Assembly: GCA_001443375.1 (NCBI GenBank)
Contig: LDXM01000012.1
Coordinates: 2,089-66,088 of the forward strand
Length of the DNA stretch: 64,000 nucleotides
Reading direction: 5' to 3'
Origin: Chloroflexi bacterium CSP1-4
GTDB lineage: Bacteria > Chloroflexota > Limnocylindria > Limnocylindrales > CSP1-4
Both the position numbers and the translations under genes were made by a program. Positions 4,372 through 47,225 of this stretch are shown piece by piece (position 1 is the first letter of the stretch; the number at the start of each line of letters is the position of its first letter). The notes beneath the pieces are model-generated. The model saw only the letters and a list, made by a program, of their open reading frames with translations. It was not told the origin of the DNA and made no database searches.

Positions 4372-5349
4372 TCACGACGATCCCGCCGAGGTGAGCGCGA
4401 TCCTGGTGGCCAGCCGGCGCGCCTCGTCCGGATCGAGCTCACCTGCCCCGGGCACGAGCGCGTTGGCGGCCGCCGCACCGGCGCCCGCGAAGAAGGCGGG
4501 GCCGAGGCCGAGGCCCGCGGCGAGACCGGCGGCCATGCCGGCCAGGAAGGCGTCGCCCGATCCGACCGGATAGCGACCCCGCACCGGGGGCGGACCGAGC
4601 CGAAGCTCGAGCCCCGTCCCGACGAGGACGGAGCCGCTGCTGCCGGCGGTGACCACGGCGTTGCCGGCGCCCCGCTCCACGAGCGCCTGCGCCAGGTCGC
4701 GGATGCCAGCCCCGGGCCCACCGACTGAGTCGGCGCCGAGTGCCTCGGCCGCTTCGGTGGTGTTGACCTTGACCAGCCAGGGATGTTTGGCCAGGGCGGC
4801 CGCGAGGCCCGGCCCGTACGCGTCGACGAGCGTCCGGGCACCCCAAGCGTGAGCCGTGGCCACGACCCGCGCGAAGGCATCGTCGGGCGAGCCGGTGGGC
4901 AGGCCGCCGGAGATGGTGACGATCGTCCCGTCGCCGGTGGCGGCGGCATGGCTCGCGATCGTCTCATCCAGCAGCGCCAGCAGCGCATCCCAATCCCCCG
5001 CGCCCACGGCGGGGCTGGGCTCGTAGATCTCCGTCAGCTCGGCCGTCGCGCGATCAAGGATCGAGACACAGGTCCGGGTTTCGCCGTCGACCCAGGTGAA
5101 GCGGCCGCTCACGCCGATGCCGGTCAGCGCTTCTTGGACCCAACGGCCGGCGTGGCCGGCCAGGAAGCCGATGGCCGTCACCGGGGCGCCGAGCCGGTGC
5201 GCGGCCCGGGCCACGTTCAGTCCCTTGCCGCCGGGCAGCGTGGTCACGGCCACCGGCCGGTGGATCGCCCCGGCCCGCAGCGCCTCGACCTCCTCGAGGC
5301 GGTCGATGGCCGGCGCAGGGGCGACGCAGATCAGCCGGCCACCGCTCAC
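4372..5349 (-). CDS. hexose kinase of the 1-phosphofructokinase family (PfkB superfamily; LacC/FruK-like tagatose-6-P or fructose-1-P kinase)
   Basis: Translation from GTG 5349 is VSGGRLICVAPAPAIDRLEEVEALRAGAIHRPVAVTTLPGGKGLNVARAA...GSGDAFLAGMAAGL. The GTG overlaps the upstream stop as GTGA. The 5' part of track ORF 4372..5772 is an out-of-gene extension. Confidence 0.8.
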   Translation of the reverse strand: MSGGRLICVAPAPAIDRLEEVEALRAGAIHRPVAVTTLPGGKGLNVARAAHRLGAPVTAIGFLAGHAGRWVQEALTGIGVSGRFTWVDGETRTCVSILDRATAELTEIYEPSPAVGAGDWDALLALLDETIASHAAATGDGTIVTISGGLPTGSPDDAFARVVATAHAWGARTLVDAYGPGLAAALAKHPWLVKVNTTEAAEALGADSVGGPGAGIRDLAQALVERGAGNAVVTAGSSGSVLVGTGLELRLGPPPVRGRYPVGSGDAFLAGMAAGLAAGLGLGPAFFAGAGAAAANALVPGAGELDPDEARRLATRIALTSAGSS

Positions 5350-6308
5350 TCCGGCAGGTCTCGTCCGGCGGCGAGCAGGGCCGCGCGCGCCTCCTCGAGC
5401 GTGGGTTGCCCGTCGGTGCCGCCCGCGCGCCGCGTGGACAGGGCGCCACAGGCCACGGCCAGCTCGAGTGCATCCGCCAAGGGCCAGCCTTGCAGGTACC
5501 CGCACAGGAAGCCGGCGTCGAACGAGTCCCCGGCCCCCACCGCGTCGGCCACGGTCACCTGCAGCGCGGCGCTGGTGACTGAGGCGGAGCCGCGCACGGC
5601 GAGAGCGCCCCGGTCGGCCTGCTTGACCACGACGGTCATGCCCTCCGGCCCGACCCCTCGGATCGCCTGTGCCGCGGCCGCGACGTCGCTCGTGCCGCCG
5701 ATCGCCCGTGCCTCGGCCGTGTTGGGCAGGAAGACGTCCGTCAGCGCGAGGATGTCCTGCAGCCCCTGCCACTCCTCGGCGGGGTCCCAGCCCGGGTCGA
5801 GCGAGGTCGTGAGGCCCTCGGCGTGTGCTGCTGCGAAGAGCCCGGGCAGGCCGGGGCGCAGCCGGTCCTGGAGGAACCAGCTGCCGACGTGCAGGTGGCG
5901 CGCCCGCATGAGCAGGGCCCGGGGGACTTCCTCCGCGTGGAGCGACGCCATCGCTCCCGGGGCGGTCAGGATCGCCCGGTCGGCGCCGGTATCGAGGACC
6001 ACGGTCACACCGGTCGGCAGCTCCGGGTCGATGCGGCAGGCGCTCACGTCGATGCCGCGGGCGCGCATCTCGTCGAGCATGAAGCGCCCGAACAGGTCGT
6101 CCCCCACGACGCCCACGAAGGCGGTGCGCAGCCCCAGCCGCGTGGCGCCGCAGGCGGTGATGACCGACGAGCTGCCCACGGCCAGCCGGATGGCGCGCAC
6201 GTACCGCTCCGCCTGCCCGAAGCGTGGCTGCGCGTGGGCGCCGGCGACGATGATGTCCGGGTTGATCTCGCCCACCACGAGCAGCCCGAGGTCGACCGGC
6301 GGCCCCAC
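5346..6308 (-). CDS. PfkB-family carbohydrate kinase (ribokinase-like sugar kinase)
   Basis: The sequence contains GLLVVGEINPDIIV...DTGADRAILTAPGA...GAGDSFDAGFLCGYLQG, the ribokinase signature. The likely start is GTG 6308, 2 nt after the aldolase stop. An alternative ATG at 6377 would overlap the aldolase gene by 67 nt. Confidence 0.75.
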   Translation of the reverse strand: MGPPVDLGLLVVGEINPDIIVAGAHAQPRFGQAERYVRAIRLAVGSSSVITACGATRLGLRTAFVGVVGDDLFGRFMLDEMRARGIDVSACRIDPELPTGVTVVLDTGADRAILTAPGAMASLHAEEVPRALLMRARHLHVGSWFLQDRLRPGLPGLFAAAHAEGLTTSLDPGWDPAEEWQGLQDILALTDVFLPNTAEARAIGGTSDVAAAAQAIRGVGPEGMTVVVKQADRGALAVRGSASVTSAALQVTVADAVGAGDSFDAGFLCGYLQGWPLADALELAVACGALSTRRAGGTDGQPTLEEARAALLAAGRDLPE

Positions 6309-10904: not shown

Positions 10905-11813
10905 ATGGACCAGGCATCCGCCCTAGCCACCCTCGCGCCCCGGCGCCGGCCCCGGCGGCGGCCCTGGGCCCGGATCGGCCGGCGCACGATCGTCTACGCG
11001 CTGCTCATCGCGGGCGGGCTGCTGATGATGGGGCCATTCCTGTGGATGATGGCCACCTCGCTCAAGACGCGCGCCGAGGTCTTCGGCTCGCCGCCGCTCT
11101 CGCTGCCGTCGGGCGCGCACTGGGAGAACTACGCGCGGATGTGGGATGCGCTCCCCTTCTCGACCTTCTTCTTCAACTCGGTGAAGCTGGCCCTGCTCAA
11201 TACGGCCGGCCAGCTCGTCAGCAGCTCGATGGCGGCGTTCGCCTTCGCCACCCTCCAGTTCCGCTTCAAGGGACCGCTCTTCGGGATCCTGCTGGCGACG
11301 CTGATCATCCCCTTCCAAGTCGTGCTGGTGCCGAACTTCATCCTCTACCGCATCCTGCCGCACCCGCTCTCGAGCAGTGGCAACTGGATCAACACGCATG
11401 AGCCGCTGTGGGTCGGGGCGTGGCTGGGCGGCGCCTTCGGCACGTTCCTGCTGCGCCAGTTCTTCCTTACCATCCCGAGGGAGCTGGCCGACGCCGCCCG
11501 GGTGGACGGCGCCAACCCCTTGCGGATCTTCTGGCACGTCTACCTCCCGCTGGCCCGGCCCGCCCTGGCGACGCTCGCGATCTTCACCTTCATGTGGACA
11601 TGGAACGACCTCATCGACCCGCTCATCTACCTGCGCGACACGGAGCTCCAGACGGTGACCGTGGGGCTCTCGCTGTTCAAGGGACAGTTCGTCGGGAAGT
11701 GGCCGGAGATGATGGCCGGGGCGCTGGTCAGCCTGCTGCCGATGATCGTGCTGTTCGTGATCGCACAGAAGCACTTCGTGCGCGGCATCACGCTGAGCGG
11801 CCTGAAGGGCTGA
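10905..11813 (+). CDS. carbohydrate ABC transporter permease (MalG/UgpE-like)
   Basis: 302-aa protein with TM segments and RELADAARVDGANPLRIFWHVYLPLARPAL, an EAA-type permease motif. Confidence 0.85.
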   Translation: MDQASALATLAPRRRPRRRPWARIGRRTIVYALLIAGGLLMMGPFLWMMATSLKTRAEVFGSPPLSLPSGAHWENYARMWDALPFSTFFFNSVKLALLNTAGQLVSSSMAAFAFATLQFRFKGPLFGILLATLIIPFQVVLVPNFILYRILPHPLSSSGNWINTHEPLWVGAWLGGAFGTFLLRQFFLTIPRELADAARVDGANPLRIFWHVYLPLARPALATLAIFTFMWTWNDLIDPLIYLRDTELQTVTVGLSLFKGQFVGKWPEMMAGALVSLLPMIVLFVIAQKHFVRGITLSGLKG

Positions 11814-11820
11814 GGTCAAG

Positions 11821-12549
11821 ATGATCGTCGACGGGGTCCCGCTCTACCGCCAGATCAAGGCCGACCTGCTCGAGCAGATCAAGAGCGGCCAGCTGGCGCC
11901 CGGGGAGCGCATCGAGTCGGAGCTCGAGCTGATGGCGCGCTACGGCGTGAGCCGGGCCACCGTGCGGCAGGCGCTCGGCCAGCTCGTGGCCGAGGGCTAC
12001 CTGGAGATCCGCCGCGGGCTCGGGACGTACGTCGCCACACCCAAGCTGGAGCAGGGGCTGGGCGGCTTCTACTCCTTCAGCCGCGAGATCGAGCGGCTGG
12101 GCATGCGACCGGGCACGCGCGTGCTCGGGGTCCGCCTGGAGCCGGCTACCCGGACGGTGGCGGCGGCCCTGGGGCTGCCCCTGGAGACGCCGGTCGTGGC
12201 GCTGCGACGCCTGCGCCTCGCCGACGACGAGCCGCTGGTGGCCGAGACGAGCTACCTGCCGGCGGCGCGCTTCCCCGGCCTCGCCGAGCGGGACTTCTCC
12301 CGTCGCCGTCTCTACGACACGCTGTTGGCCGACTACGGCGTTCGCCCCGCGCGTGCCCACGAGGTGTTCGAGCCGGTCCTGCTCACGACCGAGGAGGCGT
12401 CGCTGCTGGGCAAGCACCGCGGCGACCCGGCGCTGGTGGTCGAGCGCACGGCCTTCGACACCACGATGCAGCCGATCGAGTTCTGCCGCAGCGTCGTGCG
12501 CAGCGACCGCGTGCGTTACTTCGTCGACCTGGGCGAGGCGCAGGCATGA
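11821..12549 (+). CDS. GntR-family transcriptional regulator of the HutC/UTRA subfamily
   Basis: 242-aa protein. The N-terminal wHTH is LYRQIKADLLEQIKSGQLAPGERIESELELMARYGVSRATVRQALGQLVAEGYL. A UTRA effector-binding domain follows. Confidence 0.85.
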   Translation: MIVDGVPLYRQIKADLLEQIKSGQLAPGERIESELELMARYGVSRATVRQALGQLVAEGYLEIRRGLGTYVATPKLEQGLGGFYSFSREIERLGMRPGTRVLGVRLEPATRTVAAALGLPLETPVVALRRLRLADDEPLVAETSYLPAARFPGLAERDFSRRRLYDTLLADYGVRPARAHEVFEPVLLTTEEASLLGKHRGDPALVVERTAFDTTMQPIEFCRSVVRSDRVRYFVDLGEAQA

Positions 12550-24083: not shown

Positions 24084-24480
24084 CTCGTCACCGTCCGGCC
24101 AGCTGGCGGACGGGACCTGCTGCTCCGCGCCCGGTCACAGACGGCGATGAGCCCGGCGCGACAGCACGTGGGAAAGGGGAGCCTGCACGTACCGCGGGCG
24201 GCCGATCCTGCCACATCAAACCCACTCCCTTCGAGTGCGGTGCTGATGCGGTTCCTGGCAGCCGGGCGGTCCTTGGCGTTGAGCCCGAGGATCCCTGGCT
24301 TTGCGTCCCCGCCTCTCGACGGGTTTGCCGTACTTCAGACCGATCACGCGGGCGACGGTCGTCGTCGCCTCATGTGACCCAGAGGCTAGGGCCGGGCGTG
24401 CGGGCGGCCAGCCCGACGATGGTACCGGTCGGTGCACCGGTGCACAGCCCATTCGGCGGGGGCGCCAGGCTGTTGCCGGG

Positions 24481-38723: not shown

Positions 38724-38799
38724 TGGTAGGGGAGCCTGGATTCGAACCAGGGACCGGCGGTGTATAAGACCGCTGCTCTAACCGCTGAGCTACTCCCCC
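38724..38799 (-). tRNA. tRNA with anticodon UAU as read (nominally tRNA-Ile(UAU)); 76 nt including the encoded CCA
   Basis: The reverse complement folds as a cloverleaf: GGGGGAG-TA-GCTC-AGCGGTTA-GAGC-A-GCGGT-CTTATAC-ACCGC-CGGTC-CCTGG-TTCGAAT-CCAGG-CTCCCCT-A-CCA. The stems are 7/4/5/5 bp, the T-loop is TTCGAAT, U33 is present, A37 is present, and A73 is the discriminator. Confidence 0.8.
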
Positions 38800-45469: not shown

Positions 45470-46072
45470 ATGTTGGACCGACTCATGGGCGGCACCAAGC
45501 TCTCCGACGAGCAGAAGCGCCGCGTCCCGCCCGGCCAGTACGTGACCGAGAAGTTCCCCGTCCTCCACTACGGCTCCGTGCCGCACGCCGACCTTGCAAG
45601 GTGGGATTTCAAGGTCTTCGGTGACGTGGCGAGCCCCTTCACGTTCCGCTGGGACGAGTTCAAGCTCATGCCGCGCAAGCGGGTCCACACGGACATCCAC
45701 TGCGTCACGCGCTGGACCAAGCTCGACACCGACTTCGAGGGCGTCCCGATCCAGCACATCCTCGAGCTGGCGCAGCTGAAGCCGACGGCGAAGTTCGTGG
45801 TCGCCCACTGCGAGCAGGGCTACACCACGAACCTGCCGCTCGAGGTGCTCGACGACGACGACGTCCTGCTGGCCGACTCGTTCGACGGCAAGCCGCTGGA
45901 GGCCGAGCACGGCTGGCCGGTGCGCCTCTTCGTGCCCAAGCGCTACTTCTGGAAGAGCGCCAAGTGGGTCCGCGGCCTCGAGTTCATCGCCCAGGATCGC
46001 CTCGGCTTCTGGGAGCGCTACGGCTACCACAACAGCGCCGACCCCTGGCGGGAAGAGCGCTTCTCCGAGTAG
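45470..46072 (+). CDS. molybdopterin-dependent oxidoreductase of the sulfite oxidase family (YedY/MsrP-like Mo-binding domain only, 200 aa)
   Basis: ATG at 45470 with a GAAAGGA RBS. The motifs are VPPGQYVTEKFPVLHYGSVP...WDEFKLMPRKRVHTDIHCVTRWTKLDTDFEGVPI...HGWPVRLFVP. The track ORF is extended 5' to 44621. Confidence 0.75.
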   Translation: MLDRLMGGTKLSDEQKRRVPPGQYVTEKFPVLHYGSVPHADLARWDFKVFGDVASPFTFRWDEFKLMPRKRVHTDIHCVTRWTKLDTDFEGVPIQHILELAQLKPTAKFVVAHCEQGYTTNLPLEVLDDDDVLLADSFDGKPLEAEHGWPVRLFVPKRYFWKSAKWVRGLEFIAQDRLGFWERYGYHNSADPWREERFSE

Positions 46073-46421
46073 CGCTGCGGTAGCGGTCGAGGTGGCGGAT
46101 CGCGGCCCCGTGGCAGCTCCACCCGGGGCGTAAGGTGGATCTGCGCCGCAGGTTCCACTTCAAGTGAACAGGAACCCGACGCTCACGGAGCAGCGGCCGG
46201 CGGTCCCCGTCGGTGGAGGATGGGCGACGGATCCTGCGAGCGTGAGTCGGCGGGCCAGACGGTCGAATGAGGCGCGGAACCGGGCAGGCGGACGGCCCCC
46301 TGGTGGCGGTGGCGGCGTCAGGCAGCCGCGCTGTTCACTTGAAGCTGAAAGCGAGGTCGCCGGTGGGGCGTAGCGGCGTTGCTCGCCGACCGGCCCGCGG
46401 ACCGGGACCGCGCCTCGCGTC

Positions 46422-47225
46422 CTAGTTCCGCCGCGACTCCGCGCCACGGGCGTCGACGACGAGCGGCTTCAGATGCCGGTCGAGGAGGCGGATCTCGCGG
46501 CTCAGGAGGTCGTCGAGACGGCGCAGCCGCGCCTCGGTGTCCATGGCCTCGAGGAGACCCTGGCGCGCCGGCAGCTCCACGTGGACCAGCCCGGCCAGCA
46601 CGTACGAGAGGGCGGTCGGGTCTTCGGGGGTGACGAGGCGGCGAGCGGCGGCCATGAGCAGCTCACGGCGGTCGGCATCGGTGCCGGCCGTGACATCCTC
46701 GTGCTCTGGGCGGCCCGCAGCCCCCGAGCCTTCGGAGCGTTCGGCGTCGGGCTCGTCATCGACGATGACCTCGATCTCGATCTCGGGGCCGTCGTCGTCA
46801 TCGAGCGCCGGCTGGAGCAGCTCGAGGTAGCGCAGGAAGCGCTGACTCACCCGCTCGGACAGTCCGCGCGCGGTCAGCGCATCGCCGATCGGTTCGTCGA
46901 GGTAGCGCACGTCGGCCGTGAGGTAGGGCTCGGGCCCGTTCTCCACGTCAGCGATGCGGAACCGGCGGCCGCCCACGGTCATCAGATCGTAGCGGCCATC
47001 CGGGTAGCGCCCGGCCTCGCGGATGAGCGCGGTCGTGCCCACCCGGGCGATGCGGCCGTCGAGCGGCCCCACCTCGCGGCCCTGCCGGATGAGCACCACG
47101 CCGAACGGCTCCCCGAGGTCGATGCAGCGCCCGACCATCACGCGGTAGCGCTCCTCGAAGACATGAAGCGGAAGCGCGACGCCGGGGCAGAGGACCGTGT
47201 GGAGCGGGAAGAGCGGCAGGTCCAT
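46422..47225 (-). CDS. LON N-terminal (substrate-binding, PUA-like) domain protein
   Basis: 267-aa protein beginning MDLPLFPLHTVLCPGVALPLHVFEERYRVMV...FGVVLI. Confidence 0.75.
   Translation of the reverse strand: MDLPLFPLHTVLCPGVALPLHVFEERYRVMVGRCIDLGEPFGVVLIRQGREVGPLDGRIARVGTTALIREAGRYPDGRYDLMTVGGRRFRIADVENGPEPYLTADVRYLDEPIGDALTARGLSERVSQRFLRYLELLQPALDDDDGPEIEIEVIVDDEPDAERSEGSGAAGRPEHEDVTAGTDADRRELLMAAARRLVTPEDPTALSYVLAGLVHVELPARQGLLEAMDTEARLRRLDDLLSREIRLLDRHLKPLVVDARGAESRRN

Follow-up and report, generated by a model that had tools for sequence, protein, structure and literature searches.

Conserved inverted arms bound a short non-coding element between convergent genes and recur at unrelated loci in high-GC contigs

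The window analyzed here is a stretch of 64 kb, and the element under study lies in it between two convergent genes that carry a molybdopterin-oxidoreductase domain and a LON substrate-binding domain. The original prediction placed it in a 350-bp gap free of credible open reading frames. Both points held: the gap measures 349 nt from stop codon to stop codon, and its two small ORFs gave no Pfam match. GC content by codon position is flat across the gap, unlike in the flanking genes, where GC3 is 0.9–1.0, so we regard the gap as non-coding. The features of the locus are the following.

Molybdopterin-oxidoreductase-domain gene (Pfam): ends at 46072, plus strand
Host gap: 46073–46421, no strand, 349 nt between the stop codons of the convergent genes
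Quasi-palindrome around the left arm: 46151–46176, no strand, 26 bp, 20 of 26 positions symmetric
Element: 46153–46349, no strand, ~197 bp, non-coding, bounded by two 19-bp inverted arms
Left arm TTCCACTTCAAGTGAACAG: 46153–46171, no strand, containing the perfect 14-nt core at 46158–46171
Interior: 46172–46330, no strand, 159 nt, GC-rich, non-coding
Right arm CTGTTCACTTGAAGCTGAA: 46331–46349, no strand, reverse complement of the left arm with two mismatches at the outer NN positions
LON substrate-binding-domain gene (Pfam): 46422–47225, minus strand

Reading the sequence placed the core CTTCAAGTGAACAG at 46158–46171 and its exact reverse complement CTGTTCACTTGAAG at 46331–46344. The predicted 14-bp perfect inverted repeat is therefore real, with its right arm two positions away from the 46329–46342 first given, and 159 nt rather than about 157 nt separate the arms. 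The repeat reaches outward to 19 nt, with all 14 positions of the core and 17 of the 19 overall paired. Within the left-arm core lies the quasi-palindrome TTCA-AG-TGAA (46159–46168). The GGTTCC...GGAACC hairpin in which the left arm was said to be embedded is also present at 46151–46176, as GGTTCC (46151–46156), ACTTCAAGTGAACA and GGAACC (46171–46176), laid out as GGTTCC-AC-TTCA-AG-TGAA-CA-GGAACC. This outer symmetry of the 26-bp site is missing from the right arm and partial in the related elements described below. Compared with the REPIN/REP pattern, the arms are inverted, and only in the window copy does the left arm form a palindrome.

Three perfect 14-nt inverted repeats at a distance of 20–400 nt were observed in this 72%-GC window, where dinucleotide shuffles gave an expectation of 0.87. 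The repeat at 46158/46331 is rich in AT (8 of its 14 bases). The remaining two, at 12209/12532 and 43184/43454 with spacings of 256–309 nt, are rich in GC and about as many as chance would give. The arm core TTCANNTGAA occurs twice in the 64 kb, once in each arm, against 0.07 expected, and none of 100 shuffles contained two matches. Beyond the two arms, no further arm copy with up to two mismatches was found in the whole window, nor was a second copy of the element. Weak arm-like matches at 11259 and 11583, inside a gene that looks permease-like by eye, were set aside as being at chance level. The inverted repeat is genuine and above chance, since the same arm pair reappears at similar spacing on other contigs.

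Homologues of the LON-domain protein carry the names Candidatus Limnocylindrales or Chloroflexota. Ten metagenome contigs from different samples encode an identical LON-domain protein and are 99.6–99.8% identical to the window over 20.8 kb, and the sequence and orientation of the gap are the same in all of them. None of 219 polymorphic sites falls in the gap where about 3.7 were expected, which is weak evidence because the density of variation is uneven. Relatives with less similar LON-domain proteins had the following gaps.

L091: LON protein 94% identical, flanking genes 94% identical in DNA; unrelated ~290-nt gap (4799–5089), with homology ending at both stop codons
L314: LON protein 96% identical; L091-type gap of ~290 nt (1277–1565), 92.6% identical to that of L091
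L315: LON protein 84% identical; short contig, in which the first ~50 nt of the gap match the window type
L092: LON protein 77% identical; gap containing a 152-aa ORF
L316–L318: LON protein 74% identical; 13-nt gap

Judged from these contigs, the gap is a hypervariable site of insertion and deletion among relatives. The element is missing from the gap of close relatives and does not accompany the flanking genes as a conserved partner. A search of genome contigs with the LON-domain protein gave, among the matches listed, a best identity of 53%, too distant for non-coding comparison. Two further repeats were seen in these gaps. A direct repeat of ~26 nt (46084–46110 and 46477–46504; 24 of 26 positions with one indel, or 19 of 21 in the repeat search) brackets the entire gap of the window; its first copy lies 12 nt past the oxidoreductase stop codon and its second within the coding sequence of the LON-domain gene, toward the 3′ end, and no insertion or duplication model that we tried explains its origin. 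The ~290-nt gap of L091 and L314 has a 17-nt direct repeat of its own, CCCGCGCCGGTCGCGG, with copies 187 nt apart, a distance like that between the arms of the window element.

Metagenome contigs were then searched for TTCNNCTTCAAGTGAACAG, the 17 bases specified in the arm; contigs of the source population itself were not among the returns. The scan yielded 101 stretches, most of them chance matches in low-GC or coding DNA, and 16 were high-GC. Exact matches were found in the high-GC contigs L268/L299, L288, L312, L241, L310, L280 and L278. At four independent high-GC loci (L268 = L299/L288, L241, L310 and L280), a second, inverted arm with 3–5 mismatches stands 155–172 nt away. About 0.4 sites with up to three mismatches would be expected across the 756 kb of high-GC DNA examined. 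The dimensions and neighbors of the copies are as follows.

Window: arms 178 nt apart (start to start), element 197 nt
L268 (= L299) and L288: arms 166–167 nt apart, element 185–186 nt; neighbors in L268/L312 are tRNA-Arg, tRNA-Ser and an aro-operon leader
L241: arms ~172 nt apart, element ~189 nt; neighbors are ResB and a PucR-like regulator
L310: arms 169 nt apart, element 188 nt; neighbors are cytosine deaminase and an APH-aminotransferase gene
L280: arms 155 nt apart, element 174 nt; neighbor is panC
L278: left arm and 57 nt, then an IS256-family insertion running off the contig; neighbor is ctaG

None of the related loci carries LON or molybdopterin-oxidoreductase genes. L310 and L278 are Limnocylindrales-like or Chloroflexota-like by the names of their best protein matches. 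Most copies have (G)ATC directly inside the left arm, outside the search pattern. Contig L312, ~87% identical to L288 in the stretches they share, keeps the left arm and 22 nt as a lone arm; the 400 bp that it is missing relative to L288 comprise the remainder of the interior, the right arm and 260 nt beyond. Apart from the close pair L268/L288, the interiors of the copies have no similarity to one another in either orientation, and no k-mer is common to them. By sequence comparison, then, this is a family of 174–197 bp elements at unrelated intergenic sites in high-GC contigs, in which conservation is confined to the arms and their spacing.

The family is small. The whole metagenome scan gave about six independent loci, and ~180 kb of high-GC DNA from Chloroflexota-like relatives, which had not been selected for the arm, contained no additional arms. 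Viral-contig searches with the arm 14-mer and 19-mer returned only single low-GC chance matches; a plasmid search with a 30-nt arm returned one marginal Natrinema match with no second arm; and a literature search for the arm motif returned only primer coincidences.

One other feature was seen next to the lone arm. At ~850–1000 of L312 (~1893–2050 of the L299 reverse complement), a promoter-like TTGACA-N17-TACCGT is followed by a Tyr/Phe-rich ORF of 12 codons (MKRYFYFRSPAR in L312, MQRYFYFRRPAR in L299) and then by a GC hairpin with a T-run, upstream of genes for DAHP synthase and EPSP synthase. From its sequence layout, this region looks like an aromatic-amino-acid leader-peptide attenuator of a Chloroflexota-like genome.

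The close pair L268 and L288 allowed the element to be compared with its flanks. Over 5.86 kb they share 99.35% identity, and 35 of their 38 differences fall in 5476–5722, which is the element (5526–5710) plus ~50 nt on its left. The left arm is identical in the two contigs, and the right arm differs at its innermost base alone (5692). The interior has ~26 differences and has diverged ~300-fold faster than the flanks. This patch could reflect exchange with a diverged copy, recombinational import or repeat instability. A diversity-generating retroelement, which acts by adenine-specific variation, was rejected as its source: substitutions of mixed type were seen, and no reverse transcriptase is encoded nearby.

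Two more repeats were seen near this copy. Directly to the right of the element, at ~7140–7300 of L288 (~5745–5856 of L268), a second inverted-repeat module is formed by CTGTGCACCC and GGGTGCACAG, ~130 nt apart, and a 30-nt patch inside it is the only difference between L268 and L299. In addition, 47 nt from the 3′ portion of the tRNA-Arg gene recur 4 kb away in L268 (1191–1237 and 5259–5305), and the two copies bracket genes for an adenylate-cyclase/AAA ATPase protein and a hydrolase. Going by its position and sequence, this 47-nt pair looks like the attachment sites of an integrated island.

A purely local origin would be another account of the inverted repeat: template switching at a quasi-palindrome in a junk spacer, with no dedicated machinery and no function. 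The gap is hypervariable and holds other weak repeats, a lone perfect 14-nt inverted repeat is not rare in the window, and the differences between L268 and L288 cluster within a repeat-bounded region, all of which speaks for such an origin. However, the AT-rich sequence of 17–19 nt and its spacing are shared by five unrelated loci from different organisms, and because of this recurrence of the arm pair we consider a local inverted duplication very improbable.

The size of the element and its potential closing stem had also led to the proposal of a 6S-like or other structured small RNA; a 3′ UTR hairpin of the convergent genes, closed by the arms, is a variant of the same idea. The arms are able to pair as a stem of 14–17 bp, the length of ~185 nt is 6S-like, and at four of five loci the NN positions agree between the arms, with three different dinucleotides. 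Whole elements also fold better than shuffles (z −1.3 to −4.8). That excess, however, comes from the arms: the interiors across copies have no excess structure (z +1.5 to −2.4), and the window interior alone gave z values of +1.28 and +1.47. For 46140–46360, neither strand had a minimum free energy better than that of its dinucleotide shuffles (z −0.28 and −0.99).

Other tests for an RNA gave a similar picture. A covariance scan of 45950–46550 returned no Rfam family even at E ≤ 10, and scans of six related loci returned no match to the element at the gathering score. Over the whole window, Rfam found only a tRNA (38727–38799, minus strand) and a c-di-GMP-I riboswitch aptamer (24254–24339, minus strand; 63.4 bits against a gathering score of 35), both outside the element. 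A tRNA/tmRNA search of the gap found nothing, and neither a sigma-70-like promoter nor an intrinsic terminator was found there. When the arms alone were aligned, two pairs (the NN positions) varied on both sides, but the covariation score was not above that of shuffles (198/500), and four of six copies have C as the middle base of CTTCAAG on both sides, which would put a C·C mismatch in mid-stem. Folded as single-stranded DNA, the gap has a minimum-free-energy structure that does not pair the arms over long range.

The resemblance to 6S RNA (RF00013) stops at the length of ~185 nt and the possible long closing stem. The element has no covariance-model match, its minimum-free-energy structure is multibranched rather than a long interrupted hairpin with a central bubble, and it is not conserved in very close relatives, being missing where the LON proteins are 94% and 96% identical. 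The proposal of a structured RNA found no support in Rfam matches, fold stability, covariation or conservation, and we regard it as improbable. Because unrelated sites in other genomes carry the arm pair too, an insertion-type DNA element seems a better description than a conserved RNA.

The other suggestion made at the outset, a miniature inverted-repeat transposable element (MITE), fared better but was only partly borne out. Bacterial MITEs, examples of which are the Correia elements of Neisseria, RUP and the Tn3-derived TIMEs, are like the present element in being non-coding, ~100–300 bp long and bounded by inverted repeats of 14–30 bp, and in lying between genes in any orientation to them, with presence and absence differing between related strains. 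At 197 bp the element has no coding capacity, its terminal inverted repeats (14 of 14 perfect, 17 of 19 when extended) recur elsewhere at the bounds of similar-sized elements in unrelated loci, with arms at five other loci in all, and its host gap is hypervariable. Against membership, no consistent target-site duplication is visible outside the arms of any complete copy (five in number: window, L268, L241, L310 and L280). Interiors are unrelated, there is no second copy in the window, and copy number is apparently low. No autonomous transposon with matching ends was found, and no high-GC match of the scan had arms 0.5–3 kb apart. Mobility itself is something that we infer, as is the recognition of the arms by a protein.

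Filled and empty sites were compared as well. The element is missing in L091, L314 and L316, but there the whole gap differs; the 400-bp absence in L312 does not end at the arms; and an orthologous empty site for the L310 copy, sought through cytosine-deaminase homologues, was not obtained because synteny is not kept.

Two insertion sequences lie close to copies of the arm, and the arm was considered as an end of each. In L278, the IS256-family element (129–~1490) was rejected as the owner of the arm: 13 complete copies in different contexts end in GGAGTGTCCCCCCGAGTGGTGGGAATTGAGCG. With 57 nt between it and the arm, it has been inserted within the L278 element and is not the parent of that element. 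This IS256-family element is very abundant (~1.44 kb; L320–L332, likewise with ends GGAGTGTCCCCCCGAGTGGTGGGAATTGAGCG). Its transposase has thousands of relatives at 85–93% identity, some of them named Ca. Limnocylindrales, and many contigs consist of the element alone. The IS481-like insertion in L299 (1265–2443; HTH and rve transposase, 1179 bp, apparent duplication TGCGAT) is missing from the otherwise collinear L288; it is a separate insertion with other termini and was rejected as well. A role as a dif or origin site was dropped, as there is no GC-skew switch. To our knowledge, the arm fits none of the following well: parS, dif, the operators of LexA, Rex, ArsR or SmtB, attC, and the ends of IS3, IS481 or Tn3.

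REPINs, the inverted REP doublets mobilized by RAYT, offer a second comparison. They too have two short inverted arms around a less conserved spacer, make no target-site duplication, lie outside genes (also between convergent ones) and occur as lone arms. They differ in usually being ~100 nt long, in having tens to hundreds of copies per genome and in going with a RAYT gene; moreover, of the arms of the window copy only the left one is a good hairpin.

The main alternative, and a serious one although we think it unlikely, is that the arms are binding sites for a host protein, either crossover sites at which a trans-acting recombinase inverts or excises a segment of ~160 bp, or a looped pair of quasi-palindromic operators. 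Conservation is limited to the arms and their spacing, with interiors that vary, and the AT-rich motif, low in copy number, is retained exactly in different organisms. A core of the dimer type, TTCA-NN-TGAA, is present in each arm, and the window left arm is a 26-bp quasi-palindrome with a 2-bp center. The arms of L268 and L288 are near-identical, with one innermost difference in the right arm, as against ~26 differences in the interior, and the lone arm of L312 persists between tRNA genes and the TTGACA-N17-TACCGT that looks promoter-like by eye.

Several observations count against such sites. A single orientation was seen: none of 11 assemblies of the locus has the element inverted, and L268, L288 and L299 run collinear with one another. 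A tblastn search of the window and the element loci detected no serine or tyrosine recombinase, a weak test owing to its seed sequences, and Pfam found no recombinase within ±10 kb of the element. The interior has no promoter-like site, and with a gene 3′ end on either side, the window copy offers a promoter switch or operator no obvious target. The neighboring genes share no common function, and spacings of 155–178 nt are out of helical phase.

The recombinase version of this alternative can be made more specific. The arms could be sites of a trans-acting recombinase conserved in Limnocylindria-like Chloroflexota, with the ~160-bp segments as invertible or exchangeable cassettes. In Bacteroides, one invertase, Mpi, serves many invertible promoter segments that have their inverted repeats in common. 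Such segments (B. fragilis Mpi, fimS, Hin/hix) resemble the present copies: inverted repeats of ~19–26 bp, with dyad symmetry around a short core, flank ~160–220 bp of unrelated DNA at several loci. Inverted repeats do flank a segment here, but the element is seen in one orientation, lies between two 3′ ends, and neither a recombinase nor an internal promoter was found. A cassette system of this kind would explain the conserved arms and spacing, the persisting lone arms and the ~300-fold faster interior divergence between L268 and L288, and would amount to a dispersed DNA-switch family analogous to that of Mpi. We know of no dispersed DNA-switch family in Chloroflexota, and we judge this version quite unlikely.

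We tentatively prefer to explain the locus by a non-autonomous inverted-repeat element of low copy number that resembles MITEs or REPINs and whose arms a trans-acting protein recognizes. MITEs are the nearest known kind, but a strict definition excludes the element on three counts: target-site duplication, interiors common to the copies, and an autonomous partner. For these reasons we describe it as a low-copy non-autonomous element with arms that are probably protein recognition sites. The arms would be recognized by a DNA enzyme supplied in trans, a transposase or recombinase, and the interior would be passenger DNA, able to drift or be exchanged. The element would play no specific role for the genes beside it. 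The whole would be a foldback-type (inverted-repeat) non-autonomous element in a fast-changing gap of a Limnocylindria-like Chloroflexota.

We favor such an element because the arm pair recurs in unrelated gene contexts, because the element is present or absent at this locus among relatives, and because in L268 and L288 its history is separate from that of its flanks. The neighborhoods are also insertion-prone, with the IS256-family element in L278 and the IS481-like element beside the L299 copy, and the DNA is non-coding and gives no RNA signal. The mobile-element reading is weakened by the few copies and by the failure to find a clean empty site. The fairly tight arm spacing (155–178 nt) also hints against it, as a decaying transposon would not need such a constraint.

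Small repeat elements as such are ordinary. The combination of conserved arms and spacing, free interiors and low copy number is not, in that no known family explains the pattern fully. For annotation, the locus should not be labeled as 6S-like or as another structured RNA. Limnocylindria are an abundant, uncultured lineage of soil and freshwater. If the element is mobile, it would give a first look at miniature inverted-repeat elements in this lineage and would identify a hot spot at which the genome changes between conserved genes. Should the arms prove to be sites for a recombinase or a regulator, they would represent a new dispersed DNA switch or regulon motif.
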